Virus record (IMG/VR): IMGVR_UViG_3300015263_000331
Location: 1-47,888 of that record
Source of the DNA: a virus
Lineage: Duplodnaviria; Caudoviricetes
Strand: one strand, 5' to 3'
Length of the DNA stretch: 47,888 nucleotides
A model generated the notes under the pieces. That model did not search any database. It saw only the letters and a list, made by a program, of their open reading frames with translations, and was not told the origin of the DNA. Positions within the stretch are counted from its first letter, which is position 1. Each line of letters opens with the position of its first letter. The position numbers and the translations under genes were made by a program. Positions 1 to 47,888 of the stretch are shown piece by piece.

Positions 1-143
1 GACTGTGTGAGCTGGGAGTTGCGGGGCCGGGTCTTCGAGTAGCGCTTCCCGCCGTAGCGGAACTTCCACCAGAAGTACGGCTCACCTGCCTTGACGGCTG
101 GGTTGTCCTTGCGGGCCTTTTTCACGTAATGAACACGTGGCAT
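1..143 (-). CDS. Early phage hypothetical protein, 5' part only (MPRVHYVKKARKDNPAVKAGEPYFWWKFRYGGKRYSKTRPRNSQLTQ...), runs off the left edge
   Basis: ATG at 143-141 preceded by SD CAGAGGAG (158-151); frame open to the window edge; hand-translated, not in the ORF track. Confidence 0.85.
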   Translation of the reverse strand, partial: MPRVHYVKKARKDNPAVKAGEPYFWWKFRYGGKRYSKTRPRNSQLTQ

Positions 144-166
144 GGTGTATCTCCTCTGTTGATGAT

Positions 167-235
167 GATCCTGTCTCTTCAGAGTGGGTAGGATCGGATT
201 CCCACTGACCCCGGTCCTCAGCCGGGGTTTCGACA
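167..235 (-). ncRNA. Hammerhead ribozyme HHR1, type II with pseudoknot
   Basis: Minus strand reads UGUC-GAAA-CCCCGG(CUGAGGA)CCGGGG-UC/AGUGGG(AAUCCGAUCCUA)CCCACU-CUGAAGA-GACA-GGAUC. Full CUGANGA/GAAA/NUH core and three stems; loop I GAUCC pairs with 3' tail GGAUC. Predicted cut between 207 and 206. Confidence 0.95.
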
Positions 236-1024
236 TTACCCTTCCCAGTCGTCAGCCGTGATGGCGGGCTTCTGGGGCACGAACCCGGTGACACGGTCCA
301 TGAGATCATGGAGGCGGATCGTCCGGGGCATCAACTCGATCAGCGACACGCCCTTGTTGGCGGGCTTCAGGGCCTCGGTGGCGGCGTTGAACATGCGCCA
401 TGCGGTCTGCTCGCCGTGGTCGTAGGACGGCTCGTCCCACTCCTGCACGACCTTACCGACCCGGCTGGGGTTGATCACCTCGGACCGCAGCATGTCGACG
501 ATGATGTGGTCGGCCTGCCGCTTGTCCTTGATCCGGTACTCGCGATAGTGCTCCCAGCGGGCCTCCTGATTGACCTTGTAGAGCTGGGTCTGGTTGACCG
601 CATTGCCGATCAGGTCAGGCAGGTCGCGCATGATGTGGACCGTGTGCTTGCGGCTGAAACGAATCTCAGCCGAGAACGCAAGGTTGTCACACACGAAGAC
701 GTGTGAGCCGAAGCCCATCGCAGCCGGGAAGCTCTTGTCGATCGAGTTCCGAATGCCGACGACCAGCGCGAACTCTTCCTGAACTGAGCTTCCATTCAGA
801 AGCTCGATCAGGCCGAAGTACCGGGCCTTGTCGTGGGTCAGGCTGTGCGCCTGATTGCCGAAACGAAAGCCCATCGCCTGCAGCCGCTCTTCGGCCATAT
901 CCACGACGGTCTGGTGACCGACCGGAAAGTAGGTGTCCGTAGCCGGAGGCAGGACGATTCCTTCAAGCTCTTCGCGCTCGACGTGGCTGGCACCGCAGTG
1001 CAGCATAAGGTTTGCTCTTGCCAT
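236..1024 (-). CDS. DUF932-family protein
   Basis: 262 aa with motif GIRNSIDKSFPAAMGFGSHVFVCDNLAFS...RKHT and C-terminal AWRMFNAATEALK, typical of DUF932; SD CAGAGGAG at 1039-1032. Confidence 0.85.
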   Translation of the reverse strand: MARANLMLHCGASHVEREELEGIVLPPATDTYFPVGHQTVVDMAEERLQAMGFRFGNQAHSLTHDKARYFGLIELLNGSSVQEEFALVVGIRNSIDKSFPAAMGFGSHVFVCDNLAFSAEIRFSRKHTVHIMRDLPDLIGNAVNQTQLYKVNQEARWEHYREYRIKDKRQADHIIVDMLRSEVINPSRVGKVVQEWDEPSYDHGEQTAWRMFNAATEALKPANKGVSLIELMPRTIRLHDLMDRVTGFVPQKPAITADDWEG

Positions 1025-1050
1025 GGTAGTTCTCCTCTGTTGAAGTGTGT

Positions 1051-1113
1051 TTGGCAGTCTCTTCAGACCCGGAATGCCAATCCGGGTGACGCCCCCTCCG
1101 GGGCGTTTCGACT
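1051..1113 (-). ncRNA. Hammerhead ribozyme HHR2, type II with pseudoknot
   Basis: Minus strand reads AGUC-GAAA-CGCCCC(GGAG)GGGGCG-UC/ACCCGGA(UUGGCAU)UCCGGGU-CUGAAGA-GACU-GCCAA. Loop I UUGGC pairs with tail GCCAA. Predicted cut between 1088 and 1087. Confidence 0.95.
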
Positions 1114-1204
1114 AGTGTGTGAACAGATAGCCAAGGCTCAGCCAGATGGCCGAGTAGGCAGCGATGGCAGCGTAGGCTTGGGCAAGCGGGATGCGGTATT
1201 TCAT
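1112..1204 (-). CDS. 30-aa hydrophobic membrane peptide (MKYRIPLAQAYAAIAAYSAIWLSLGYLFTH)
   Basis: ATGA overlap with the upstream stop, SD GAGGTG, one hydrophobic stretch; its TAG overlaps the start of HHR2. Confidence 0.65.
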   Translation of the reverse strand: MKYRIPLAQAYAAIAAYSAIWLSLGYLFTH

Positions 1205-1413
1205 GATCCCACCTCACAAGCCTTCAGGAAGCGCTCACGATCGAAGTTGGGGTTCTCGTGGCGGAAGTAGTCCGCCAGCGCTCCAGCCATCGACCTGCGA
1301 GTGGCCTCAGCACCCTTCTTAAAACCGGGTGTCAGGTACTTATCATCAGGATCGAACTTGCGATCACGAACGATGCTTGCGATAGCCTCGAAATGCTTGC
1401 GCGTCATGCTCAT
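1201..1413 (-). CDS. 70-aa early phage protein (MSMTRKHFEAIA...ENPNFDRERFLKAC)
   Basis: True start is the ATG at 1413 after SD CAGAGGAG (1427-1420); the longer ORF-track version runs through HHR3. MTRKHF and NPxFDRERFLxAC motifs recur in small phage proteins. Confidence 0.85.
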   Translation of the reverse strand: MSMTRKHFEAIASIVRDRKFDPDDKYLTPGFKKGAEATRRSMAGALADYFRHENPNFDRERFLKACEVGS

Positions 1414-1431
1414 GTTGGTCTCCTCTGTCGG

Positions 1432-1498
1432 TGGCAGTCTCATCAGTATCGGAATGCCAATCCGATATACCTGCCCCTCCTCTAGGACAGGTTTCAAC
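1432..1498 (-). ncRNA. Hammerhead ribozyme HHR3, type II with pseudoknot, GUA cleavage triplet
   Basis: Minus strand reads GUU-GAAA-CCUGUCC(UAGAGGAG)GGGCAGG-UA/UAUCGGA(UUGGCAU)UCCGAUA-CUGAUGA-GAC-UGCCA. Loop I UGGCA pairs with tail UGCCA. Predicted cut between 1468 and 1467. Confidence 0.92.
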
Positions 1499-1529
1499 GA
1501 TGGCCGGGATTAACCCACACCGGCAGGGT

Positions 1530-1570
1530 CCGTTCACCCTCCCGGCACTAGAAGCCGGGAGGGTTTGCGG
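1530..1570. other. Strong GC-rich intergenic hairpin, possible processing, stability or terminator-like element
   Basis: ACCCTCCCGGC-N7-GCCGGGAGGGT perfect 11-bp inverted repeat (1536-1564), extendable by CCG/CGG; no clear U-tract. Confidence 0.55.
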
Positions 1571-1573
1571 TAG

Positions 1574-2062
1574 CTATACAGCTTCACGCTTGGTGGCTTC
1601 GTCACCAGTGGCGATCTTCAGGGTGAAGTGGAACCCACGGCGCTTCTTCGCCGGGGTGGCTTCGGACTGCGTGTAGCGAACCGTGTCGATGTATTCGACC
1701 AGATCGTCGTCCAGATCAGGCACGAAGTTCCTGATCTTGTAGTGAGCCTCGGGCGGCAGGTAGACCTTGTAGATGCAGTAGCCTTGCGGCTGCATCGTAC
1801 GAGCATTCATATCACGCTCTTCCTGCAGGCGCTGGCACTCCCTGAGAGAGGCATGTGTCTGCCAGTAGGCAGCGCTGCTGGTGAAGAAGTGGTACTCACG
1901 CTTGCGATCTTTTCTCCAGCGGTCCTCGCGGAAGCTAGAGATCACTTCGAGGCAATCCTCGAAATCATCAGCCGTGGCGTCACTGCCAGACTGGCGCAGA
2001 TCGGGGATCAAGGTTTCACGCAGATGGGTGACCAGTGCGTAGATATTGTCGAAGCTATGCAT
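1574..2062 (-). CDS. First early gene, hypothetical protein (162 aa)
   Basis: SD CAGAGGAG at 2076-2069, ATG at 2062; no family recognised. Confidence 0.85.
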   Translation of the reverse strand: MHSFDNIYALVTHLRETLIPDLRQSGSDATADDFEDCLEVISSFREDRWRKDRKREYHFFTSSAAYWQTHASLRECQRLQEERDMNARTMQPQGYCIYKVYLPPEAHYKIRNFVPDLDDDLVEYIDTVRYTQSEATPAKKRRGFHFTLKIATGDEATKREAV

Positions 2063-2084
2063 TTCGTTCTCCTCTGTTGATGGG

Positions 2085-2152
2085 TGGCCTGTCTCATCAG
2101 AGCGGGTAGGCCATCTCCCGCTGACCCCGTCGTGGTGACCGGGGTTTCAACA
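2085..2152 (-). ncRNA. Hammerhead ribozyme HHR4, type II with pseudoknot
   Basis: Minus strand reads UGUU-GAAA-CCCCG(GUCACCACGA)CGGGG-UC/AGCGGG(AGAUGGCCUA)CCCGCU-CUGAUGA-GACA-GGCCA. Loop I UGGCC pairs with tail GGCCA. Predicted cut between 2123 and 2122. Confidence 0.95.
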
Positions 2153-2418
2153 ATCAGAGGAGGAGATTGTTGAGTAGGGCGAGTCGTTACCTTCTGTCCC
2201 CGAGCGGTTTACGGCTTGCTCCGCTTGCCTCGGGAAGGTCGCTACTACCAACGTCGCTTCTACAGGTTCCTGCTGACATTCGCCTTTCGGCCAAGTGGTC
2301 AGACTACGCAGCGTCTTCCCGTCCCCAGTTTCACCGAGTGGGTCTCGTCGAAGTCTTGGCTTCGCTTCCCCGGCCAGTGCCAGATGGGGGCTGTGGGCCG
2401 TGGTCACGTCCTGTGACA
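2153..2418 (-). ncRNA. Structured 5' leader of the early transcript, candidate novel ncRNA
   Basis: About 265 nt between the promoter and HHR4 with no SD-led ORF. Contains a 5' hairpin GUCAC/GUGAC, a GCC-GAAA-GGC tetraloop and a long interrupted stem at 2252-2169. Confidence 0.5.
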
Positions 2419-2424
2419 GCTCCC

Positions 2425-2453
2425 ACTTTAGGGGAACCCAGTTCCCATGTCAA
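2425..2453 (-). promoter_or_regulatory. sigma70-type early promoter (leftward)
   Basis: TTGACA (2453-2448), 17 bp spacer, TAAAGT (2430-2425); A-tract upstream resembles an UP element. Confidence 0.8.
2432..2446. promoter_or_regulatory. Palindromic operator-like site in the promoter spacer
   Basis: Perfect GGGAAC-N3-GTTCCC; a 10/12 match GGGAAA-GGA-GTTCTC lies at 2485-2499. Confidence 0.5.
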
Positions 2454-2542
2454 CTACTTTTTATCCAGATGCTCGATAGGATGTGGGAAAGGAGTTCTCT
2501 CAGGCACTCTTTATATAGAGGTTCGTGTTGCGGGATTCTTCG

Positions 2543-2551
2543 TGCTATAAT
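2543..2551 (+). promoter_or_regulatory. Extended -10 promoter (rightward)
   Basis: TGcTATAAT, a perfect extended -10, about 30 nt upstream of the ATG at 2581. Confidence 0.7.
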
Positions 2552-2580
2552 CGAGTGGAATCAAACACTTGGATCAGGAA

Positions 2581-2754
2581 ATGGCGCAGAATCAAGTACC
2601 TACACGGAAGCCCATACAGCGCAGGACGACGATGAAGCAGCTTGCGGACTGGGGCAATAGGGCTTTACCGCCTGAATCTGAGTTCAAACCGTACCTGTTC
2701 GGAAACGGGACCAAAGAGAAGAAGGCAGGGAAGGGAGCCTACGACGGAAGTTAA
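2581..2754 (+). CDS. Small basic hypothetical protein
   Basis: First ORF after the rightward promoter; AGGA upstream of ATG 2581. Confidence 0.5.
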   Translation: MAQNQVPTRKPIQRRTTMKQLADWGNRALPPESEFKPYLFGNGTKEKKAGKGAYDGS

Positions 2755-2778
2755 ATCGAGCTGCGAACGAGGTGCCAC

Positions 2779-3015
2779 ATGCAAATCACACCTGCGGTCC
2801 GTGCGACCGTGATCACCGAAGTCATCGCCGAGCTTATGAGCTATGGCCACCACTACGCTGCCGGACACGTCAACAGTTGCCGAGAGCGATTGCTTGCACG
2901 CCATGCCGGGGAGTGTGGTCATGTTGTACGAGATAGTACCAACACCGAAGCCGAGGATGACGCAACGCGACAAGTTGCCGTCACGGGTCAAGCCGCCTCG
3001 GCCACCGGTTGCTAG
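2779..3015 (+). CDS. Hypothetical protein
   Basis: SD GAGGTG before the ATG; overlaps the next gene. Confidence 0.45.
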   Translation: MQITPAVRATVITEVIAELMSYGHHYAAGHVNSCRERLLARHAGECGHVVRDSTNTEAEDDATRQVAVTGQAASATGC

Positions 3016-3503: not shown

Positions 3504-3798
3504 ACACCTTGAGTTGACTCCTGAAGAGATTCGGGAGTTGGACGAAATCAGCAGCGACAAGGATGGCGTGAAGACGGCCCTTAGGGTGGCTCAGAACTAC
3601 GCTGCCAACGCCCTGTCCCGGCTGCGTCGGAAAGAAAAGAAGTGGTGGAAGGATGTCATGCAGAAGCGAGGCGTCCCGCTACACTCGCATTACGTGGCGG
3701 AGATAGACCACACCATCCCGCATATCAGGGAAGCCACTGAGCAGGAGAAGATGGCACCTAGGGACGCCATCGAGGGCTGGCTGGACAAGAACACATGA
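3475..3798 (+). CDS. Hypothetical protein
   Basis: ATG 3475 after GAGAGGAAGG; ATGA-coupled to the next gene. Confidence 0.7.
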   Translation: MNDEKKQIAEHLELTPEEIRELDEISSDKDGVKTALRVAQNYAANALSRLRRKEKKWWKDVMQKRGVPLHSHYVAEIDHTIPHIREATEQEKMAPRDAIEGWLDKNT

Positions 3799-4211
3799 GG
3801 CAAGAGCTGCCAGTCGCGATCGAGAGGCTGAGGGTCCAGCCACCCGAGTTTCCACGTACCGCTCAAGGTAGCCTGTACGGTGCGTTCTACTGGCCGGAGA
3901 AGAAGATTTACATCATCTCCTCTGGTTCAGGTCCTGAGGCAGGCGGCTGGGAGCACGTCAGTGTGTCGCATGCCAAGCGCACACCGACATGGGATGAGAT
4001 GTGCCGGGTCAAGGATGCCTTCTGGGGTGAGGATGAGACTGTGGTCCAGTTCCACCCGAGAGCATCCGAGTACGTCAACCTGCATCCCCACACGCTGCAC
4101 CTCTGGAAGCGCACTGATGGGGACTACACGTTACCGCCTCACCTGTTCGTGGGGCCAAAGTCAACTGAGGAGAAAGGCAATGATGATGAATCCGAACATG
4201 ACGCTGGCTGA
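3795..4211 (+). CDS. Conserved phage protein (WEHVSVS...PTWDEMCxVKDxFW...QFHP...YVNxHPxxLHLW family; DUF7694-like from memory)
   Basis: Recognisable conserved motif string widespread in phages; function unknown. Confidence 0.8.
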   Translation: MRQELPVAIERLRVQPPEFPRTAQGSLYGAFYWPEKKIYIISSGSGPEAGGWEHVSVSHAKRTPTWDEMCRVKDAFWGEDETVVQFHPRASEYVNLHPHTLHLWKRTDGDYTLPPHLFVGPKSTEEKGNDDESEHDAG

Positions 4212-4643: not shown

Positions 4644-4882
4644 TGAGATACAGCGGACTGCTCACCATGCTGCTCATTGGCTTCCTCCTAGGCATAGGAG
4701 TAGGTAGCGCCATCGAACGTTACAGCACCGCAGCACACTCCACCGGACAGGTCTTCAGCTATACACAAGACCAGATGGATAGAGCACGGGTATACCAGCG
4801 GCAGTGTCTGGGGAATGGAGGGTCACCACGTATCACTGAGTCCTCTGTAGGGGTGCAAATACTCTGCATAGGCGGTAGGTGA
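4643..4882 (+). CDS. Membrane-anchored hypothetical protein
   Basis: TGATG coupling; N-terminal TM segment LLTMLLIGFLLGIGVG. Confidence 0.6.
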   Translation: MRYSGLLTMLLIGFLLGIGVGSAIERYSTAAHSTGQVFSYTQDQMDRARVYQRQCLGNGGSPRITESSVGVQILCIGGR

Positions 4883-32765: not shown

Positions 32766-34586
32766 ATGAGCGAGATCACCCTATACGAAGGAGCAGCAGC
32801 CGCAACACCACCCTCTGGCGGAATCACCATCTATGCCAAGGTCAACCACCGGCTTTATTGGAAAACCGACACGGGCGTCGAGATTCCGTTTTATCCCGAG
32901 GGCGCGGGCACAGGTGATCTGAACTCTGACGGCAGCGTCGCCCTAACCGTCAACTGGGACATGGGCAACTACCAGATGCGGGCGCTGCAGTTCTACCCAG
33001 ATGCCACCACTGGCACACCGCCATTTGTGGTCGACTCTACGACTTTAGTCGCAAACCTGAACGTCGATCAGCTCGATGGCTACGAGGCGTCCGCCTTCGT
33101 CCTGCTGGCAGCAACCGATATCTCCACTGCTGGGTTCTTCCTCGACGAAGACAACATGATCTCGGATGATCCAACCAAGGTAGCCAGCCAGCAATCGATC
33201 AAGGCTTACGTCGATATGAAGACGGCTGGGGCCCTGATGTTCCAGACGGGCTATAACGCCAGCACCAATAGCCCCGACCTGACGACCTCGCCGAACTCTA
33301 TCCTGAAGGGCCAGTACTGGGTGGTCAGCGCTGCCGGAACCTCGTTCTACAGCCTGAATCTGGAGATAGGGGACACCTTGATTGCTAATCAGGATGATCC
33401 CTCGCTCGTGGGTCATTGGACGGTCCTACAGACGAATCTCGATGCGGCCAGTATCAAGACCCTGTATGAATCGAACAGCAACACCAATGCCTATCCAGAT
33501 GCTGACGTGGCGGTAGTTGCCGCAGCCTTGGTCGATGGTGATTTTTCCGGGGCCAATGGCGAGATGCAGAAAACGGGCAGCGGAACCTACAGCACAATCA
33601 AGTGCGACTTTGCGGCCACTGCCGATCCAGATGCAAACTATGACAACACGGCTGGCTGGGCAGTTGGTAGTCGCATTATCAACGTCAACAACGACACGGT
33701 GTGGACGTGTGTTGATGCGAGCACTGCCGCTGCGTTATGGACGGAAGGCGGTGGCGCGGGTGGACTGGTACCACAGTTCAAGACCGCCAGTTTCACAGCC
33801 GTCGCAGGCAACATGTATTTCTGCGACACGTCAGGTGGGCCAATAGCCGTCACCTATCCTGCCGGAGTTGATCAGGACAACATCGCAATCTATGGCGATG
33901 CAACGTCAAGAGCGAACAACATCACCATCACGCCCGATGGCTCCGAGACCATCGACAACGACACCTCGTTCGTCATCGACCAGAACTTTGGTCAGGCGAA
34001 TACTGCCTATGATGCCGCCAACACCAACTGGGTCTGTGCCTTAACCGGCATGCCAGAGGTGGTTAATGTCGAGGCTTACATCATAGGAGCACAGACTTTT
34101 ATTTTTAGAGCTGGCGACTTTGGTTTGGGTGGTACACCACCGTCACTAGGAACGGCTGCTGGGAACTATGGCGTTAAGGTTCTGGCATTTGATGATTCAG
34201 CCTATGAAGCGGCAAACTTGGCCTTGCCGATGCCCAACCGATGGAACGAGGGACAGTTCAAATATCGGATAATCTGGCAACCACTTTCAACAGGCACCGG
34301 GACAGTTCAGTGGGGAGTTTATGGAAACGCCGCCACCGATGGTAGTGTTATGCCAACTTCTTCGGTGGGCGCTTCTGTTGAAGATGCTGCTAGTGGAACG
34401 GCCAATGCTTGGCAAACCACCATATGGTCAGCATGGTTTTCATTCGGCAACACCCCTGATTTGACAAAGATGATAGCCCTCAGGGTGCAGCGTAATGGTC
34501 CGTCTGGGCCTGATACTTATGTAGGAGATGCAAACTTTATCGCCATCGAACTTCAGTGGGTCTCTAACGCAGCAACGGATGATTAA
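32766..34586 (+). CDS. Tail fibre protein (mosaic)
   Basis: 606 aa; PFVVDSTTLVANLNVDQLDG, LDEDNMISD...SQQSIKAYVD, GWAVGSRIINV fibre modules. Confidence 0.8.
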   Translation: MSEITLYEGAAAATPPSGGITIYAKVNHRLYWKTDTGVEIPFYPEGAGTGDLNSDGSVALTVNWDMGNYQMRALQFYPDATTGTPPFVVDSTTLVANLNVDQLDGYEASAFVLLAATDISTAGFFLDEDNMISDDPTKVASQQSIKAYVDMKTAGALMFQTGYNASTNSPDLTTSPNSILKGQYWVVSAAGTSFYSLNLEIGDTLIANQDDPSLVGHWTVLQTNLDAASIKTLYESNSNTNAYPDADVAVVAAALVDGDFSGANGEMQKTGSGTYSTIKCDFAATADPDANYDNTAGWAVGSRIINVNNDTVWTCVDASTAAALWTEGGGAGGLVPQFKTASFTAVAGNMYFCDTSGGPIAVTYPAGVDQDNIAIYGDATSRANNITITPDGSETIDNDTSFVIDQNFGQANTAYDAANTNWVCALTGMPEVVNVEAYIIGAQTFIFRAGDFGLGGTPPSLGTAAGNYGVKVLAFDDSAYEAANLALPMPNRWNEGQFKYRIIWQPLSTGTGTVQWGVYGNAATDGSVMPTSSVGASVEDAASGTANAWQTTIWSAWFSFGNTPDLTKMIALRVQRNGPSGPDTYVGDANFIAIELQWVSNAATDD

Positions 34587-41351: not shown

Positions 41352-44300
41352 ATGGACAAGGATTATTCGTCGTTTGCGGAAGATAAAACCTATACGCAGG
41401 AAACGGAAGCTCCACCTTTAACCGCATCAGCAGCGCTAGAGATACCAGAATCAAGCGACTATTACTCGTCGTTTTCTAGCGATATCGACTATACCAAGGG
41501 CCCCGAACCAGCTCAGGGTGCGCCGGGAGAAGAACCCTCTTTCCTGAAGAACCTCGTCGCTGAGTGGGGTGTTGGTTCCGGTCAGCTCGCTCAAGGTATC
41601 GGGCAACTGATGGACGACTGGCTCGGATGGAAGAGCGGAGCTGAATTCGTCCGCAACGCAGGGCAGCGAGCCGAGGAGTACTGGAAAGGCTCGATCCCCG
41701 AGGACGAGTGGAACCGGATCGAGAAGGAGACTCAGAAGAACTTTATGACCCTCAAGGACGAGGGCGACTGGTGGAACCCCATGGACTGGGAGCGGGGCGA
41801 CATGGGTCTCGAAGGCTTGCTCTATATGGGCATGCAGTCCATGCCAGCCACGGTGGCCACCATGCCGATCGCCGGACTTGGTGGTAAGTTGGGGATGGCT
41901 GCGATCAGCAAGATACCGGGCGTATCCAAGCTGATAACCACTTCTAAGGTCGGAAAACTAGCTGAGGCGGCTGGCGGATCGGCGGAAGCGATCAAGGCCG
42001 GGAAGCGGGCCGATAAGATTCTAAACCGGATTCAGGGAACCCTCATGGGCACTACCTATGGTGGCGCTGAGGGCGCGATTTCGGCTGGCCAGACGGGCTA
42101 CCAAATCAATCAGCAGGTTGACAACATGCGGTTCGAGGACCTGCTGTTGAAAAGTGACTATGCCCGGAACGTATACGAGGCCCACATCGCCGAGGGTATG
42201 GACCCTGAGGAGGCGGCGAACCAGACACGGGAAATGGTCAAGGAGAAGGCCAGATCAGACGCCATGTGGAAGACCATGGTCACCACAAGCGCTCTGGGCG
42301 CTCCCATGGGCATGTTCTTCTCCTCCGTGCTGCTCAGGACACCATGGGCTAAGGCTTTCGCTTCCGGCAAGGTGGCTGGATTGGTTGAGGGCGCAGCAGG
42401 TGAGGCCGCACAGGAGACTTTGCAATCGGCCTTTGAGCAGTATTGGCAGAACGAGGCGACACAGAAGTATGCGGACAAGACGATCAAGCTCTCCGATGGT
42501 GTGTTCGAGGCTGCTCTCACAGGTGGTATTGTCGGCGGTGTTCTGGGTGGCGCTTTCGGCGTGGCTGGTACGCCAACTAAGGCTCAGGCCCAGAGGGAAG
42601 AAACCCGCACCCAGAACCTGAAGGACAACCTGAAGGTTGAGGTGCATTCACGACTGGCCGCTTCTAGTCTGATGCAGAACTATGGCAAGACGCCAGAGCA
42701 GGCTACTGAGATTATCACCCCGATTATGCAGCGCTACTCGGAAACCAGAAATCTGGTTGAGGCGGCTGCTGACCTGAAGTTCCTTGAGATGACAGGTCGT
42801 ACTCGTGAGCGTGGCCTTGATAATGTTGGGCAGGCCCAGCCGGATTACGGCGACCTCGATGTCAGTGTTGAAGAGGAGGCTGGGCAGGAGCGCAACGGCC
42901 ACACCCTGAAGTACCCAGCCGGGAAGATCAACGGCACGGTCGGCGCTGACGGCATGAACGTCGATATCGTTGGTCCGGGCACCGGCAATCGCATCTACAT
43001 CGCCGAGAAGTTGGCCCCTGATGGTACCTTCGAGCAGCACAAGGTCCTGTATGGCTTCGAAAATGAAGAGCAGGCCATGGATGCGTTCTACAGCACATGG
43101 GGCCGGGACGACGCCGACAACCTCGGCAACCTGACTGAGGTTAACAATCAGGAGCTGAACGACGCTCTGGCCCGCTGGACACGTGACTATGGAACTGAAC
43201 TGGGACCAGCCACCGATGAGCCGCTGACGCCAGAAGAGGACCTCGCGCTTCGCAAGGATGAAGACTTGCAGGTTGGCATCGAGGATGTCCAGTCCCAGCT
43301 TGATTATGTACAGAACGAGGACGGCTCTTACCCGACCGAAGCTGAGCCTCTGCTCAACCGCCTGAAGGTGCTACAGGAAGAGAAACAGCGCCGGATCAAC
43401 TCTGGTGAGTGGCAGCAAGAAGCGGGCGTGGAACAGCCCGTGGAACAAGGTGAACAGGGTTCCCAGCCAGAGGGCGAAAATCAAGCAACCACACAGGTTT
43501 CAGAGGAAGCTCCACGTGGAACAGAAGGGGGTGAAACACCACTCAGCCTGCGCGAGGGTGGCCGTACCATGCGCGGGCCATACCCGGAGCGGATACGGCC
43601 TTCCGAGGCTGCTGGTGCTGGTGAGAGGGCGGTCGATGTCGATTTCTTGCATCTCTCTCGCGAACCTGATCTGCAGGTATTGAAGGGCGAGAAGGCTAGC
43701 ACCTCCGCCGTCCGGCGTACGCGAGCCAAGGTGGGTCGTGAAGCCACTGCCAATCGAGTTTACATCTACGCCCAGCAAGAGAAGGCGATGGGTGGCCGTT
43801 CTGTTAGTGGCAATGAGTCCGTTGTCTCTCGGGCCTCGGATCAGGTCTACAGCGGGACCGCTACCAACCTGTACGACTTTGATGCTGATCCGCTGAACCT
43901 GCTGCAGGGGGCAAAGATGCCCTCTGAAAGCATGGAAGCCGCCATCCTCAAGGCGGGTTACGACGGTTGGTACTACGAGAAGTTCCCGAAAATACATGGC
44001 GGCATGGGCGTCATCCTCAACAAGGATGTGGCGGCGATGTATCACGGTCGCGCCCAGAAGGTTAAGGAGCTGTTGCGCGAGCCGAGCATGTTCCAACATC
44101 TGGTCGCGTGGGAAACCATCCCCGGCAGTGCCTCCCCATTTGCCGCAGCCACCTCTCTGCTGACCCCGGCAGAAGCTCAGGTGCTGAACGAGAAGCTGCT
44201 GCTCGGCGTGGTGATCCAGAAAGACCTCCGTAGTGATATGCTGGCCTCGGCCATGGGACTTCCATCGCGGCTGCTGTTACAGCGCTGGGGCGGATATTCC

Positions 44301-47300
44301 GGTAAGGTCATGCCGTCGATGCAGGTTGGTCTTGACAGCGCCCTGCAAGCCAACCTGTATTCGGCGGCGATTAAGCTGATCTACCAGCAGGATGCCGTGC
44401 CATGGATGCATGCCACGCCCAAGGGGGACAGGGACGGCATCGAAATCGAGCTGGACAGAACACCGACCCAGAAGCAGCTCGAAGCCTTCCAGCGTGAACT
44501 TGAGAAAAATCTCGGGCAGTTTGTTGGGTTCACGGTCATGCCGGATGGCAGGATCATGGTCGGGAACTACGATGAGAATGTATCCAGAGCGCAGTTTGTA
44601 GCGCGAGTGGATCGCTCGGCAGCAGTGCTTCCAAGTGGTACAATGACCTCCTTCAAGTTCGAGGGCGCGTATCGTGACGAAAGCCAGCAAGAAACTAAAG
44701 AACTTGCGCTACGCTGGGCAAGCGAAGCCGGATCACCGAATCTACAAGAGTGGATTTCAACTGCTCAGGCCCGTGCGGCAAAGGCCGCAGGGGAATTCTT
44801 CAGCTCCCTCCCAAGAAGCCACGCCGCCCGCCAAGCCTACGAAAACTCAGCAGTAACCCCGCTCAGCCTGCTGCCGGAGGAGTTCCAGCTCACTCCTCCC
44901 GACGAAGAGGCTGAGGCCGAATACAAGGACCCATTCTATTCAGCCCTTCTCCGAACGGTGGAGGAGGGTTCGCAGCGTGGTATGCCAAAGAAGGGAGCCA
45001 AGGCCATCAAGGAATGGCTGCTTGCTGCCCAGAGGAAAGGTCTGTTCAAGAAGGAGGAGTACGACTGGCTGGACCTTGATCGTGTGTTCGAGGATTACAG
45101 CGAGGTCGGCGCTCCCGAAATGAAGCGTCAGGACCTACTCGATTACGTTAAGAGAAATCAGGTCAGGATTGAGGACTCCTTTGCTGGTGCGCCAGACCGT
45201 GCAGCGTTCCGTCCTTACGATATAGCCCTCGGTGATCTGCTGGATTACATCTATACCCTCAGTGCCACCAGCGGGATCAATGAGAGCGCCCTGAAGATGT
45301 GGGCCAACGGCACTGACGTCGGGGGCATAGAAGCTATCCCAGAGCATCAGCGTAATGAGCTGCTGAGGCGTCATGAAAAGTTCATCCAGCTTGAGGCGCA
45401 GTCCATCGAGCGCGGCCTCAAGACGGATCGACCGGCAACCAAGTATGAGGAATACAGTCTGGCCGGTGGTCGGAATGCTCGCGAACTACTACTGGTTGTC
45501 CCCGGTATTGGTGAGTGGGGCGATGGGCATATATGGAATCAGGACGGTCGAAAGCGGGCGGTTGTTCATGTCCGATTCAACGACCGGATCAACAGCGAGG
45601 GTGGGCGTACGCTGTTTATCGAGGAGGTGCAGTCAGACCGCCATCAGGCCGGGCGCAAGGAAGGGTATCAGGCTCCTGATTTGAGCCGGAAGAATAGGGC
45701 GCTCAGGGAGCAGTTGACGCGAGTTGGTCGAGGTATCGACAAGATTGTTAAGGAGAACAACAATCTTGGATTTGATAACTCAGCAGAAGCGCAACTTTCA
45801 CTTGTTTCGAGAATGAGGCATGTGGGACGTGGTGAAGGCATTAGGTTGCACAATACAGTCTTCGGGTTTGAGCTGAACACTACCGAAGAAGCCGCGCAAC
45901 TTGGAGACCTGTTATGGGAAGCCAAGCGCCTTCGCCGCCTCCTTGATGATGTGGAATCCCAGCAGCGTATAGGCGTTCCACCAACGCCCTTTATGAAGAC
46001 CCAGACATGGGCCATGGTGGCGATGAAGCGCATGATCCGTTACGCCGCTGAGAACGGCTACGATGCCGTGGCATGGACGCCGGGAGATGTTCAGAATGAA
46101 CGCTATGGATTAGAGCGCTCGATAGATGCCATTAGATATAAGCCAACGGAAGGGTATCTCTACATCGAGTACTCCAATGGCAATGAGGATGTGGAGGAGC
46201 TTAGCGCGACCGAGATAGAAGAAGGAATGGGCATTGCAGGGCAGGTGCCAGAATGGATGCGGATTGAGATGTCCAGCAGCATAGATCAAGCTCACCAAGA
46301 TGCTGAATATTATTACGAACCAACCCTTCTCAAAGACACAGACTATATCGGCGAGGTGGCTGATCAACAAGGATTTGACCAAGAAGATTATGAGCCGGAA
46401 GGCTACGTCATCATCAACAATAGTGGGGACGTCGAGCGCACGTATGATGGTCAGATCGAGTGGTTTGAGGATGAGGAGGAGGCTCGCAAATGGGCGCTGG
46501 AAAAGGTCGAAGCGTCTGATGACGGTTTAATCATCTGGGGTGACGAGGAAGACAAGGTCGGTGGTGAAGGGATGCGCGGCTTCTATGATGACATCCTCGT
46601 CAACGAGGTGCAGAAGTTCGTCAAGAAATGGGGCGCTCAGGTAAGACCGTTCGGTACCGCCATCGACACCGAGGAAACCTTCGGAGATGAGATCGCCGGG
46701 GATATCAGCGATGAGGCGCTGAGGGTGGCTTTCGAAGAGAACCAGACGGTAGATATGGAAGGCAACGCATGGGGGTTGTCCTTTGAAGGGCCGGAGGGGG
46801 TACATCTGCTCAAGATGACGCCTGACTTGGTGGAGGCCGCGATGGGCGGTTTCCCGCTGTTTTCTCTGGGGCCGGACGCTAAACCCAGCGATCAGGCCCG
46901 CGCTCGCGAGCACGCAGAACGCCTCTATAACCGCCCCGACTGGACCGTGATCAACAAGGAGGTTGATGCCTCCGTGGCTGGAGCCGTCACACCTGAAGAG
47001 ATTCAGGACGCCATGGAAGAGTTCACGCTCATGGGCACCATGAGCCGGTACTTCCGCAAGTGGTTCGGCAACTCCCAGACGGTGGACGCCTTCGGCCAGC
47101 CGATCGTTTTTTATCATGGCAGTGGCGAGGGCATGATTGGTCGATTCCTGCCTAATCAGAGGGGTCAAATCTTCGTTTCCACCAACCCGGCCTTTGCTGG
47201 CGCATTCGCCGAGGTAAACTCTATGACCTATGGCTGGTCGGTGGACGAAGAGGACCCCAATTACACTCGCGCAGCTCCGACCATCTACCCTCTGTATGTT

Positions 47301-47888
47301 CGGGCCAACAAGATATTTGACTTCCGTAACAAAGCGATCCGGCGCAGCTATTCCCGCTGGCTGCAACAGAACAACATCTACTCAGGAACCCGGCTGAATC
47401 AGGAACTGGCCAACGTTCAGAACGGCGATTGGGAGACGATCGAGAGGGGCGCTGTTCAGGCCTTCATCAAGGAGCGTGGCTACGATGCGTTCTACCTGAT
47501 GGAGCAGGGGTCTCTGAACCTTGGCTTGTTCGATCCCAGAAACATCAAGTCGGCAGTGGGGAACGCCGGGACCTTCCTGAATGGCACCGCAGACATGCTG
47601 CTGTCACTGGACCCGAACGAGGTGGGTAACGAGCTGAGCCGTCGCCTTAATCTGTACCAGTTGCTGGCTCATCTGCAGAAGACCACCACTGCCGATTCCA
47701 CCTTGAAGGCGGTGCGGGCGCACATCAATGAAGGACTGGATAAGGGCCTGTTCGATCGTCGCGCCCTGAAGGCCCTGTCCGGCAAGGAAAATAGCGGAGC
47801 TGAGATCATACGAAAGATTAAGGCCTCGATCCGTGCCGGTGCCCCGATCACTGCGCGAACAGCGCTGTCACGCACGGTGGTCAACAAC
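41352..47888 (+). CDS. Giant polyvalent / internal virion protein, at least 2179 aa, truncated at the right edge
   Basis: ATG 41352; same frame spot-translated at 42843, 43623, 45423 and 47043. Contains an InPase-like domain (~42843-43180), an ART-like domain (~43640-44050), an EEVQSD domain (~44930-46650) and an ART-PolyVal-like domain (FRKWFGNS...FYHGS...GYDAF...FDPRNIKSAVGN, ~47050-47580). Every codon was not checked. Confidence 0.85.
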   Translation, partial: MDKDYSSFAEDKTYTQETEAPPLTASAALEIPESSDYYSSFSSDIDYTKGPEPAQGAPGEEPSFLKNLVAEWGVGSGQLAQGIGQLMDDWLGWKSGAEFVRNAGQRAEEYWKGSIPEDEWNRIEKETQKNFMTLKDEGDWWNPMDWERGDMGLEGLLYMGMQSMPATVATMPIAGLGGKLGMAAISKIPGVSKLITTSKVGKLAEAAGGSAEAIKAGKRADKILNRIQGTLMGTTYGGAEGAISAGQTGYQINQQVDNMRFEDLLLKSDYARNVYEAHIAEGMDPEEAANQTREMVKEKARSDAMWKTMVTTSALGAPMGMFFSSVLLRTPWAKAFASGKVAGLVEGAAGEAAQETLQSAFEQYWQNEATQKYADKTIKLSDGVFEAALTGGIVGGVLGGAFGVAGTPTKAQAQREETRTQNLKDNLKVEVHSRLAASSLMQNYGKTPEQATEIITPIMQRYSETRNLVEAAADLKFLEMTGRTRERGLDNVGQAQPDYGDLDVSVEEEAGQERNGHTLKYPAGKINGTVGADGMNVDIVGPGTGNRIYIAEKLAPDGTFEQHKVLYGFENEEQAMDAFYSTWGRDDADNLGNLTEVNNQELNDALARWTRDYGTELGPATDEPLTPEEDLALRKDEDLQVGIEDVQSQLDYVQNEDGSYPTEAEPLLNRLKVLQEEKQRRINSGEWQQEAGVEQPVEQGEQGSQPEGENQATTQVSEEAPRGTEGGETPLSLREGGRTMRGPYPERIRPSEAAGAGERAVDVDFLHLSREPDLQVLKGEKASTSAVRRTRAKVGREATANRVYIYAQQEKAMGGRSVSGNESVVSRASDQVYSGTATNLYDFDADPLNLLQGAKMPSESMEAAILKAGYDGWYYEKFPKIHGGMGVILNKDVAAMYHGRAQKVKELLREPSMFQHLVAWETIPGSASPFAAATSLLTPAEAQVLNEKLLLGVVIQKDLRSDMLASAMGLPSRLLLQRWGGYSGKVMPSMQVGLDSALQANLYSAAIKLIYQQDAVPWMHATPKGDRDGIEIELDRTPTQKQLEAFQRELEKNLGQFVGFTVMPDGRIMVGNYDENVSRAQFVARVDRSAAVLPSGTMTSFKFEGAYRDESQQETKELALRWASEAGSPNLQEWISTAQARAAKAAGEFFSSLPRSHAARQAYENSAVTPLSLLPEEFQLTPPDEEAEAEYKDPFYSALLRTVEEGSQRGMPKKGAKAIKEWLLAAQRKGLFKKEEYDWLDLDRVFEDYSEVGAPEMKRQDLLDYVKRNQVRIEDSFAGAPDRAAFRPYDIALGDLLDYIYTLSATSGINESALKMWANGTDVGGIEAIPEHQRNELLRRHEKFIQLEAQSIERGLKTDRPATKYEEYSLAGGRNARELLLVVPGIGEWGDGHIWNQDGRKRAVVHVRFNDRINSEGGRTLFIEEVQSDRHQAGRKEGYQAPDLSRKNRALREQLTRVGRGIDKIVKENNNLGFDNSAEAQLSLVSRMRHVGRGEGIRLHNTVFGFELNTTEEAAQLGDLLWEAKRLRRLLDDVESQQRIGVPPTPFMKTQTWAMVAMKRMIRYAAENGYDAVAWTPGDVQNERYGLERSIDAIRYKPTEGYLYIEYSNGNEDVEELSATEIEEGMGIAGQVPEWMRIEMSSSIDQAHQDAEYYYEPTLLKDTDYIGEVADQQGFDQEDYEPEGYVIINNSGDVERTYDGQIEWFEDEEEARKWALEKVEASDDGLIIWGDEEDKVGGEGMRGFYDDILVNEVQKFVKKWGAQVRPFGTAIDTEETFGDEIAGDISDEALRVAFEENQTVDMEGNAWGLSFEGPEGVHLLKMTPDLVEAAMGGFPLFSLGPDAKPSDQARAREHAERLYNRPDWTVINKEVDASVAGAVTPEEIQDAMEEFTLMGTMSRYFRKWFGNSQTVDAFGQPIVFYHGSGEGMIGRFLPNQRGQIFVSTNPAFAGAFAEVNSMTYGWSVDEEDPNYTRAAPTIYPLYVRANKIFDFRNKAIRRSYSRWLQQNNIYSGTRLNQELANVQNGDWETIERGAVQAFIKERGYDAFYLMEQGSLNLGLFDPRNIKSAVGNAGTFLNGTADMLLSLDPNEVGNELSRRLNLYQLLAHLQKTTTADSTLKAVRAHINEGLDKGLFDRRALKALSGKENSGAEIIRKIKASIRAGAPITARTALSRTVVNN

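Follow-up and report, generated by a model that had tools for sequence, protein, structure and literature searches.

Why would a phage operon carry several self-cleaving ribozymes, one shortly before nearly each of its genes? The purpose of such ribozymes was left undefined in a 2019 review (PMC6765202). The question was explored for the left end of the window, that is, the whole stretch of 47,888 bases analyzed here. The contig carries genes for portal, major head, tail fibre and RusA, which give the phage context, and no terminal repeat was found at its ends. A motif and structure check of the window identified a leftward (minus-strand) phage operon with four type II hammerheads with intact cores. 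This operon is putatively early, as judged from its position and gene type.

Hammerheads and genes of the leftward operon

The descriptor, which combined the core with the stems, gave exactly four matches over the 47,888 bases, and all four were on the minus strand. In 100 third-order Markov simulations, the matches amounted to 0.02 per window and never exceeded one. The four elements, HHR-a to HHR-d, had their G12 at 2148, 1495, 1109 and 231, respectively, and are listed with the other features in Table 1. The preliminary description had named the same four complete elements and the same cleavage sites; both were recovered by the descriptor, and the predicted pieces between the cuts were 655, 380 and 881 nt long.

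Table 1. Features of the operon, listed from right to left along the window
Feature	Position	Strand	Details
Sigma-70-like promoter, TTGACA-17-TAAAGT	2425..2453	-	10/12 consensus; probable start of the leftward transcript
Leader of ~250 nt, probably untranslated	2174..2424	-	Folding z -0.25, nothing unusual
9-bp inverted repeat	2147..2173	-	3' arm overlaps HHR-a stem II and G12/A13
HHR-a	2085..2152	-	Type II; predicted cut 2123/2122 (GUC); 6-bp pseudoknot; Rfam 38.1 bits
SD CAGAGGAG of 162-aa gene	2069..2076	-	
162-aa gene	1574..2062	-	One 63% relative
Two GC-rich hairpins between 162-aa stop and HHR-b	1500..1567	-	z -3.47; no U tail
HHR-b	1432..1498	-	Type II; predicted cut 1468/1467 (GUA); 5-bp pseudoknot; Rfam 25.3 bits
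SD CAGAGGAG of 70-aa gene	1420..1427	-	
70-aa gene	1201..1413	-	Seven viral relatives
30-aa hydrophobic gene	1112..1204	-	ATG overlaps previous stop; without own ribozyme
HHR-c	1051..1113	-	Type II; predicted cut 1088/1087 (GUC); 6-bp pseudoknot; Rfam 49.6 bits; overlaps upstream stop
SD CAGAGGAG of DUF932 gene	1032..1039	-	
DUF932 gene, 262 aa	236..1024	-	PF06067, E 9.5e-06
HHR-d	167..235	-	Type II; predicted cut 207/206 (GUC); 6-bp pseudoknot; abuts DUF932 stop
SD CAGAGGAG of left-edge gene	151..158	-	
Left-edge gene, running off the window	1..143	-	~198 codons by the extended contig; 79% identical to the post-DUF932 gene of L005

The CUGANGA motif, GAAA and an NUH triplet were present in all four copies. 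Stems I (6-7 bp) and III (5-8 bp) were closed by loops, and stem II (at least 3 bp) was open. The pseudoknot between loop I and the 3' tail covaried, its paired sequences differing between copies. Moreover, this pairing was specific: a loop paired with its own tail over a mean of 4.73 bp vs 2.97 bp with other tails (26 ribozymes; 0/10,000 permutations). The ribozymes are, on this sequence evidence, under selection on structure; the pair-type counts, which were partly selected by the descriptor, were excluded from the evidence for covariation. When the window was scanned with Rfam model RF02276 (Hammerhead_II), a check that had been suggested beforehand, half of the set passed the gathering score of 37. 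The hits at 1049-1113 and 2083-2152 were above it, that at 1429-1499 (HHR-b; E 0.038) was below it, and HHR-d was missed despite an intact core and intact stems. The modules were mutually 60-72% identical, and the longest exact stretch in common had 15 bases (HHR-b and HHR-c). A profile built from the ribozymes (R1) had a poor automatic structure of 8 pairs and served as a sequence profile only; it matched its training sequences by construction and revealed no additional copy within the window.

The spacing of the signals was regular. CAGAGGAG began 8, 4, 11 and 8 nt past the tails of HHR-a to HHR-d, and the ATG followed 6-7 nt further, in agreement with the earlier observation of one SD and a start codon behind each hammerhead. 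The contacts with upstream stop codons noted before were likewise found, at 236-238 for HHR-d and 1112-1114 for HHR-c. Since the 30-aa gene is without its own ribozyme, four of the five genes in the window have one, and one unit is bicistronic. The promoter pattern occurred at 2 sites vs 1.1 +/- 1.0 in shuffles and is weak alone. An 86-aa frame in the leader (2147-2407) is probably not a gene, with a GC3 of 0.59 vs 0.66-0.84 in the five operon genes. The 162-aa protein had no Pfam, PHROGs or NCBIfam match and no usable Atlas match, and terminator prediction made no call at the hairpins that follow its gene.

Relatives of the array and the layout in other phages

The suggestion that the array may continue leftward proved correct. 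On a contig of the probable source run, a fifth hammerhead, followed by the same SD and an ATG, was located 458 bases beyond base 1. Several ribozymes on the same strand surround single genes or short blocks, with four in 2 kb and the fifth beyond the edge. The fifth copy was identical to HHR-d at 81/85 positions and, for one pseudoknot pair, was without either partner. The small-share runs X2 and X3 were used for sequence comparison only. The array is retained in a relative from a different study (the X2 relative), which has two compensatory changes in HHR-d stem I together with a change at the single variable core base. Its leader has 87 letters where the window has 107, and the SD region 1418-1428 is present twice, ~520 letters apart. 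In the closest DUF932 relatives, the layout is preserved and the ribozyme sequences are different: L005 has three copies and one that is cut off, and L006 has two. L005 carries an extra ribozyme and a 133-aa gene before DUF932, and a similar 28-aa gene at the position of the 30-aa gene; in L006, another gene directly follows the post-DUF932 ribozyme. The flanked genes thus vary, and whole ribozyme-SD-gene units distinguish L005, L006 and the X2 relative.

These whole-unit differences raise the possibility that the modules are maintained chiefly for marking cassette boundaries, serving as crossover points and portable expression signals in the gain and loss of accessory genes, with cleavage being secondary. 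The doubled SD region of the X2 relative, the likeness of the fifth copy to HHR-d and the 15 exact bases common to HHR-b and HHR-c are in line with this explanation. The window copies are, however, too divergent to offer more than short stretches for recombination, and what the compensatory changes maintain is RNA structure and the catalytic core, not DNA identity. This explanation is considered improbable.

Ribozymes were found at 8/160 DUF932 loci from metagenomes and viruses and at 0/80 from genomes, at 1/15 loci of the last gene and at 1/7 loci of the 70-aa gene. By comparison of these sequences, the ribozymes are dispensable for the genes elsewhere, and most relatives are without them. 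The idea that relatives without a hammerhead have a ribozyme of a different class instead was considered and rejected: Rfam gave only tRNAs and weak matches at 7 loci, and at 14 loci it gave tRNAs and a single hammerhead. The ribozyme module had no match among cultured phages, and neither the single DUF932 protein nor that of 162 aa retrieved any viral locus.

Among sampled phage type II hammerheads, 119/140 had a stop codon within 10 nt. A stop within 10 nt of G12 was present in 111/130 phage ribozymes vs 5-12/130 at shifted positions. The order of stop codon, hammerhead, SD and ATG is the standard phage layout. A ribozyme array in a phage operon is not new; the layout was already known in 2011, and phages commonly have it. 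Such clusters were described by Perreault et al. (2011; PMC3088659), who proposed processing into gene-length mRNAs and demonstrated cleavage; comparable triple arrays cleaved in vitro, and one also did so in E. coli. The words "stop codon," "Shine" and "translation" are absent from the main text of that paper. Its prophage clusters (triple arrays of Clostridium scindens, Azorhizobium caulinodans and Agrobacterium tumefaciens) have the type II topology and the loop I/3' tail pseudoknot seen here, and they also place several ribozymes around single genes or short blocks of variable identity. In contrast, the present array has at least five copies and one common SD, comes from an uncultured marine-sediment phage and has predicted cleavage sites, whereas cleavage of the earlier arrays was assayed (PMC3088659). 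The HHphage ribozyme of haloviruses HF1/HF2 also immediately precedes the first gene in a polycistronic phage transcript, but it is a single core variant from an archaeal virus with a 5' end mapped in vivo; the 5' end of an HF2 early transcript is within 3 nt of a hammerhead site (PMC3088659).

Probable self-processing of the operon mRNA

The hammerheads likely cut the long leftward transcript into one- and two-gene mRNAs without any protein. A hammerhead cut leaves a 2',3'-cyclic phosphate on the upstream piece and a 5'-OH on the downstream piece. The downstream pieces would start with a paired 5'-OH end, formed by stem I and the pseudoknot, 54-63 nt before the ATG. The 3' terminus of the upstream pieces would be formed by the GC-rich hairpin of stem III, 24-29 nt beyond the stop at HHR-c and HHR-d. 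In a host of the RNase E type, both ends would resist decay, and each gene would thereby acquire a half-life of its own and a ribosome site independent of context, in the manner of the engineered insulator RiboJ. The portability of each ribozyme-SD-gene unit would probably be a by-product. T7 early RNA is processed by RNase III, a route that depends on a host protein and yields 5'-phosphate and 3'-OH ends. The T7 transcript is also polycistronic and cut between genes, as proposed here, but its end chemistry is the opposite. Self-processing of a polycistronic mRNA had been put forward in the preliminary description; it is retained as the best reading, with structure under selection, and is not new because it is a published hypothesis (PMC3088659).

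In RiboJ, a ribozyme cut generates a 5' end that carries a hairpin and lies upstream of the RBS, as is predicted here, and mRNA is raised ~twofold (PMC6206723). RiboJ is engineered, single, constant in sequence and placed at the promoter, whereas the present copies are natural, diverged and mostly intercistronic. The related proposal of a standard 5' end for each gene held for length and architecture, with stem I predicted at the new end and the cut-to-ATG distance confined to the narrow range above. It did not hold for sequence, since the modules are only 60-72% identical, and the 30-aa gene is without such a leader.

Any stabilizing effect of the cuts would depend on the host, and neither the portal (38% identical to Vibrio phages) nor the genomic DUF932 matches (the nearest being mostly from Verrucomicrobia and Planctomycetota and only 36-45% identical) pointed to one. 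RNase E favours a 5'-monophosphate, and RNase J1 degrades the 5'-OH glmS product (PMC3997798). The glmS ribozyme also cleaves itself in a 5' leader to leave a 5'-OH mRNA, but it belongs to another class, is ligand-dependent and triggers decay (PMC6765202, PMC3997798). Cleavage could similarly destabilize the present mRNA, by exposing 5'-OH pieces to a 5' exonuclease or by uncoupling genes, and limit or time expression. Both the RNase J1 precedent and the uncertain host leave room for this effect. Against it stand the strong SD at a fixed distance after every ribozyme, the predicted base pairing of the new 5' end and, in related ribozymes, pseudoknot formation by the isolated strand (PMC3088659), and such destabilization is regarded as quite unlikely. 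Furthermore, internal pieces would carry a 5'-OH and a cyclic phosphate, and the core could in principle be rebuilt, so that ribozyme pairs might excise and religate pieces into circular or spliced mRNAs. This was raised in PMC3088659, whose authors detected neither product; the stem II strands and pseudoknots differ between the present copies, and religation is very improbable.

The first ribozyme and the significance of the array

The influence of cleavage on SD accessibility was explored by folding predictions. The gain in SD opening was generally small, with medians of 0.1-0.5 kcal/mol, and a general cleavage-gated SD was rejected: the median was 0.46 kcal/mol in 25 ribozymes (3 over 2), and it was 0.1 and 0.4 in 88 and 12 ribozymes (7/100 over 2). 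For HHR-a to HHR-d, the predicted gains were 4.1, 1.9, 0.1 and 2.7 kcal/mol, that of HHR-a being the largest of the 25. HHR-a also competes with strong rival folds (8.9 kcal/mol; as costly in only 5/140) and, given these folds in the model, may be cut slowly.

A tentative explanation, compatible with self-processing as the main one, is that HHR-a acts as a switch. In the uncut leader, an anti-SD of 8 nt (2162-2155; the inverted-repeat loop and the first base of the 3' arm) would pair with the SD of the first gene, and the 9-bp hairpin would compete with ribozyme folding. The cut would free the 5' piece to refold into the hairpin, the SD would open and only then would the first gene be translated; this switch is rather doubtful. 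Both the minimum free energy and the centroid structure of the precursor held the 8-bp anti-SD/SD helix, and the released 5' piece folded at z -5.26. With the hammerhead fold imposed on the leader, the energy was -33.1 kcal/mol with the SD paired vs -22.4 kcal/mol with it free, in a model that leaves out the pseudoknot and the core energy. At least 6 upstream bases complementary to the SD were found in 0/100 other phage hammerheads with an SD. The HHR-a anti-SD is a single case, noticed post hoc, with no covariation seen and no leader orthologue that could be read, and the inverted repeat could instead be a DNA operator. At L253, a hammerhead that is also promoter-proximal has a 6-nt anti-SD, but this locus was found by a pattern selecting for an anti-SD, and only 1/13 matches had a hammerhead. 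Moreover, the first ribozyme of L394 is without an anti-SD, as are all 12 ribozymes without an adjacent stop (0/12). The combined view of the array as a modular protein-free expression system of stop-ribozyme-SD-ORF cassettes, with the first ribozyme as a cleavage-gated switch, is accordingly held with low confidence. If true, HHR-a would be a natural hammerhead switching translation on, of which no description was found in the literature searched.

The array as such is no surprise to specialists. The remaining interest lies in the relatives that differ by whole units and in the 8-nt anti-SD of HHR-a with its rival hairpin. What self-cleaving ribozymes do for bacteria and phages is stated to be an open question (PMC6765202), and the locus is a compact test bed for it, with four ribozymes and one SD in 2.3 kb and the ribozyme-less gene as an internal control; in addition, ribozymes precede the same genes in some relatives and not in others. 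The stop-ribozyme-SD-ATG geometry, which is fixed across phages, offers natural insulator parts and points to a role linked with units of translation.

Structure, selection and spacing of the hammerheads

The window was a tailed-phage fragment, in which the genes for the portal, major head, tail fibre, RusA and a large polyvalent protein ran rightward. A short leftward operon probably began at a sigma-70-like site, which was weak on its own, and encoded on the minus strand, in order, proteins of 162, 70 and 30 aa, a 262-aa DUF932 protein and one truncated at the window edge. Its position and gene type suggest that the operon is early. The coordinates of all features are listed in the table.

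A core and three-stem descriptor matched the window four times, each time on the minus strand; the chance expectation was 0.02 matches per window (100 third-order Markov simulations). The four minus-strand hammerheads of the preliminary description were thus all recovered at the cut sites it had proposed, and its common Shine-Dalgarno sequence (SD), SD spacing and stop-codon contacts agreed with the sequence. The Rfam type II hammerhead model, suggested there as a check, passed two of the four copies; the third scored 25.3 bits and the fourth was missed. The loop I/tail pseudoknot had 5-6 bp in each hammerhead, and the paired sequence differed per copy. Across 26 ribozymes, taken from the window and from loci retrieved for comparison, the mean pairing of each loop with its own tail was 4.73 bp versus 2.97 bp for crossed combinations (0/10,000 permutations). 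The structure and spacing of the four hammerheads, and the selection on them, were shown. Like HHR-b with its SD-like loop sequence, HHR-c and HHR-d carried GGAG or GAGG in their stem III loops.

Features of the window, its continuation and related loci
Feature	Sequence	Coordinates	Strand	Predicted cut after	Remark
HHR-a	window	2085-2152	minus	2123	type II hammerhead
HHR-b	window	1432-1498	minus	1468	type II hammerhead
HHR-c	window	1051-1113	minus	1088	type II hammerhead
HHR-d	window	167-235	minus	207	type II hammerhead
Fifth hammerhead	run X1, record 1	32782-32862			458 letters past window base 1
Sigma-70-like site	window	2453-2425	minus		promoter scan; probable operon start
SD-like AGAGGAGG	window	1476-1483	minus		loop III of HHR-b; no ATG at usable distance
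Two GC-rich hairpins	window	1500-1567	minus		z -3.47; no U tail; between stop of 162-aa gene and HHR-b
Divergent region	window	2496-2550			AT-richer; opposite leftward promoter
Extended -10-like TGcTATAAT	window	within 2496-2550	plus		no call there by promoter scan
Polyvalent protein	window	41352-47888	plus		>2179 aa, cut by right edge; InPase and ART-PolyVal domains; stretch resembling a virion RNA polymerase family
First ribozyme of five-copy array	L394	2528-2635			loop III enlarged to ~35 nt; after long leader
Two genes of eight-ribozyme array	L096	1478-2584, 3324-4097			long identical N-terminal part in common
Hammerhead with triplet GGC, not GUC	L056	692-765			nearly identical to L048 hammerhead before DUF932
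Hammerhead-like remnants	L086	~3595-3620, 3950-3990, 4750-4870			ahead of SDs; GAAAC-hairpin-GUC without remainder; CUGAUG with changed neighbours
tRNA gene	L088	5865-5950			directly before DUF932
tRNA gene	L089	6861-6944

A marine sediment metagenome matched the window best and is possibly its origin. In the probable source run (X1), a 50,673-nt contig covered window positions 1-3000 with zero differences. The preliminary description had suggested that the array may continue beyond the left edge, and inspection of the adjacent sequence revealed a near-copy of HHR-d, which matched window positions 149-233 with 81 letters identical, no other letters and four gaps. It was followed by the same SD and an ATG 7 nt behind it, at the loose end of the match. 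Two of the gaps removed both partners of one pseudoknot pair, and a third would bulge stem I; hence, the activity of this copy is less certain. More hammerheads may follow, since the contig extends ~18 kb past the fifth copy. A 65,554-nt relative from another study (run X2) spanned most of the region and carried two compensatory changes in HHR-d stem I and one change at the variable core position, as taken from the differences displayed, with 223 further rows outside that display. This relative also retained window positions 1418-1570 with 12 differences.

Distribution among related loci

The IMG/VR pattern scan, which was biased to the window's subfamily, yielded at least 135 loci; 113 of these contained hammerheads, at least 140 distinct ones in total. 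Among the matches listed, the stop codon of a frame of at least 40 codons lay within 10 nt of the core base G12 in 119/140 hammerheads. Where enough upstream sequence was present, such a stop lay near G12 in 111 of the 130 listed hammerheads versus 5-12 at shifted positions, and an SD and start codon followed 100 of the 140 listed. Because this geometry was so frequent, the design of the window is an ordinary one. No paper on the stop-ribozyme-SD geometry was found in a literature mostly without subscription papers; the supplements of PMC3088659 may show it.

Ribozyme presence across relatives is patchy. Hammerheads were found in 8/160 DUF932 loci and in none of 80 DUF932 genome loci (the best 80 of 283 matches). 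The 160 loci comprised the best 80 matches each from metagenomes (of 576) and viruses (of 368), and a few contigs entered this count twice. The last operon gene was accompanied by a hammerhead in 1/15 loci and the 70-aa gene in 1/7. Therefore, the same genes are usually expressed without ribozymes. tRNA genes often occupied the same region of hammerhead-less relatives (L088, L089, L400, L401, L402, L403, L406 and L408), and tRNA processing might punctuate their transcripts instead. In the two closest DUF932 loci among the matches listed (75% and 79%), the layout was kept and the ribozyme sequences were different. The largest arrays had eight (L096) and five (L394) copies; the shared N-terminal part of the two L096 genes suggests a recent duplication. 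The L086 remnants are probably degenerate or variant ribozymes.

Relatives differed by entire ribozyme-SD-gene units, indicating that these units behave as cassettes. This behaviour was argued to be a by-product because the copies were only 60-72% identical.

Proposed processing of the transcript and possible gating at HHR-a

Hammerhead cleavage leaves a cyclic phosphate and a 5'-OH, and RNase III processing of T7 early RNA offers a comparison for the array. The operon transcript would be cut co-transcriptionally into gene-sized mRNAs. Each piece would start 54-63 nt ahead of the ATG, with its 5'-OH end paired, and the pieces would end in the stem III hairpin, 24, 29 or 106 nt past a stop. The predicted fragment sizes (655, 380 and 881 nt) coincided with those of the preliminary description; the 380-nt piece would be bicistronic, because the 30-aa gene has no ribozyme.

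The consequence of cleavage was also considered. According to PMC3997798, RNA with a 5'-monophosphate is attacked more rapidly by RNase E, and RNase J1 is able to attack a 5'-OH end; hence, the host would determine whether cleavage stabilises or destabilises the pieces. A stabilising and insulating effect is favoured, and a general opening of the SD upon cleavage was not supported by folding predictions across the ribozymes compared. The array had one uncommon feature: directly 5' of HHR-a, the sequence formed a 9-bp inverted repeat that carried an 8-nt anti-SD. The anti-SD might sequester the SD of the first gene until cleavage frees it, a gating that we consider unlikely. The precursor was predicted to form this pairing and the released 5' piece a very stable hairpin, and the predicted gain in SD opening was the largest of 25 ribozymes. 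Moreover, among the matches listed, a folding cost as high was reached in only 5/140 other ribozymes and at least six such anti-SD bases in 0/100. However, the folding model omitted pseudoknots, and the anti-SD was a single case spotted post hoc, with no covariation. A look-alike came only from a pattern selecting for an anti-SD (1/13 matches), and none was found at the first ribozyme of L394. An anti-SD-gated natural hammerhead was likewise absent from the literature searched, mostly without subscription papers.

In PMC3088659, prophage hammerhead clusters flanking single genes were described and processing into gene-length mRNAs was already proposed; three triple arrays cleaved in vitro and one in E. 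coli (Perreault et al., 2011). PMC6765202 called the purpose of such ribozymes undefined (Weinberg et al., 2019), and PMC13725137 dealt with fungal and plant RNA viruses. RiboJ (PMC6206723) is an engineered analogue of the ribozyme-before-SD arrangement. The hammerhead array of the window is real, under selection and extended to five copies, and it is a further example of the phage and prophage hammerhead clusters already described.
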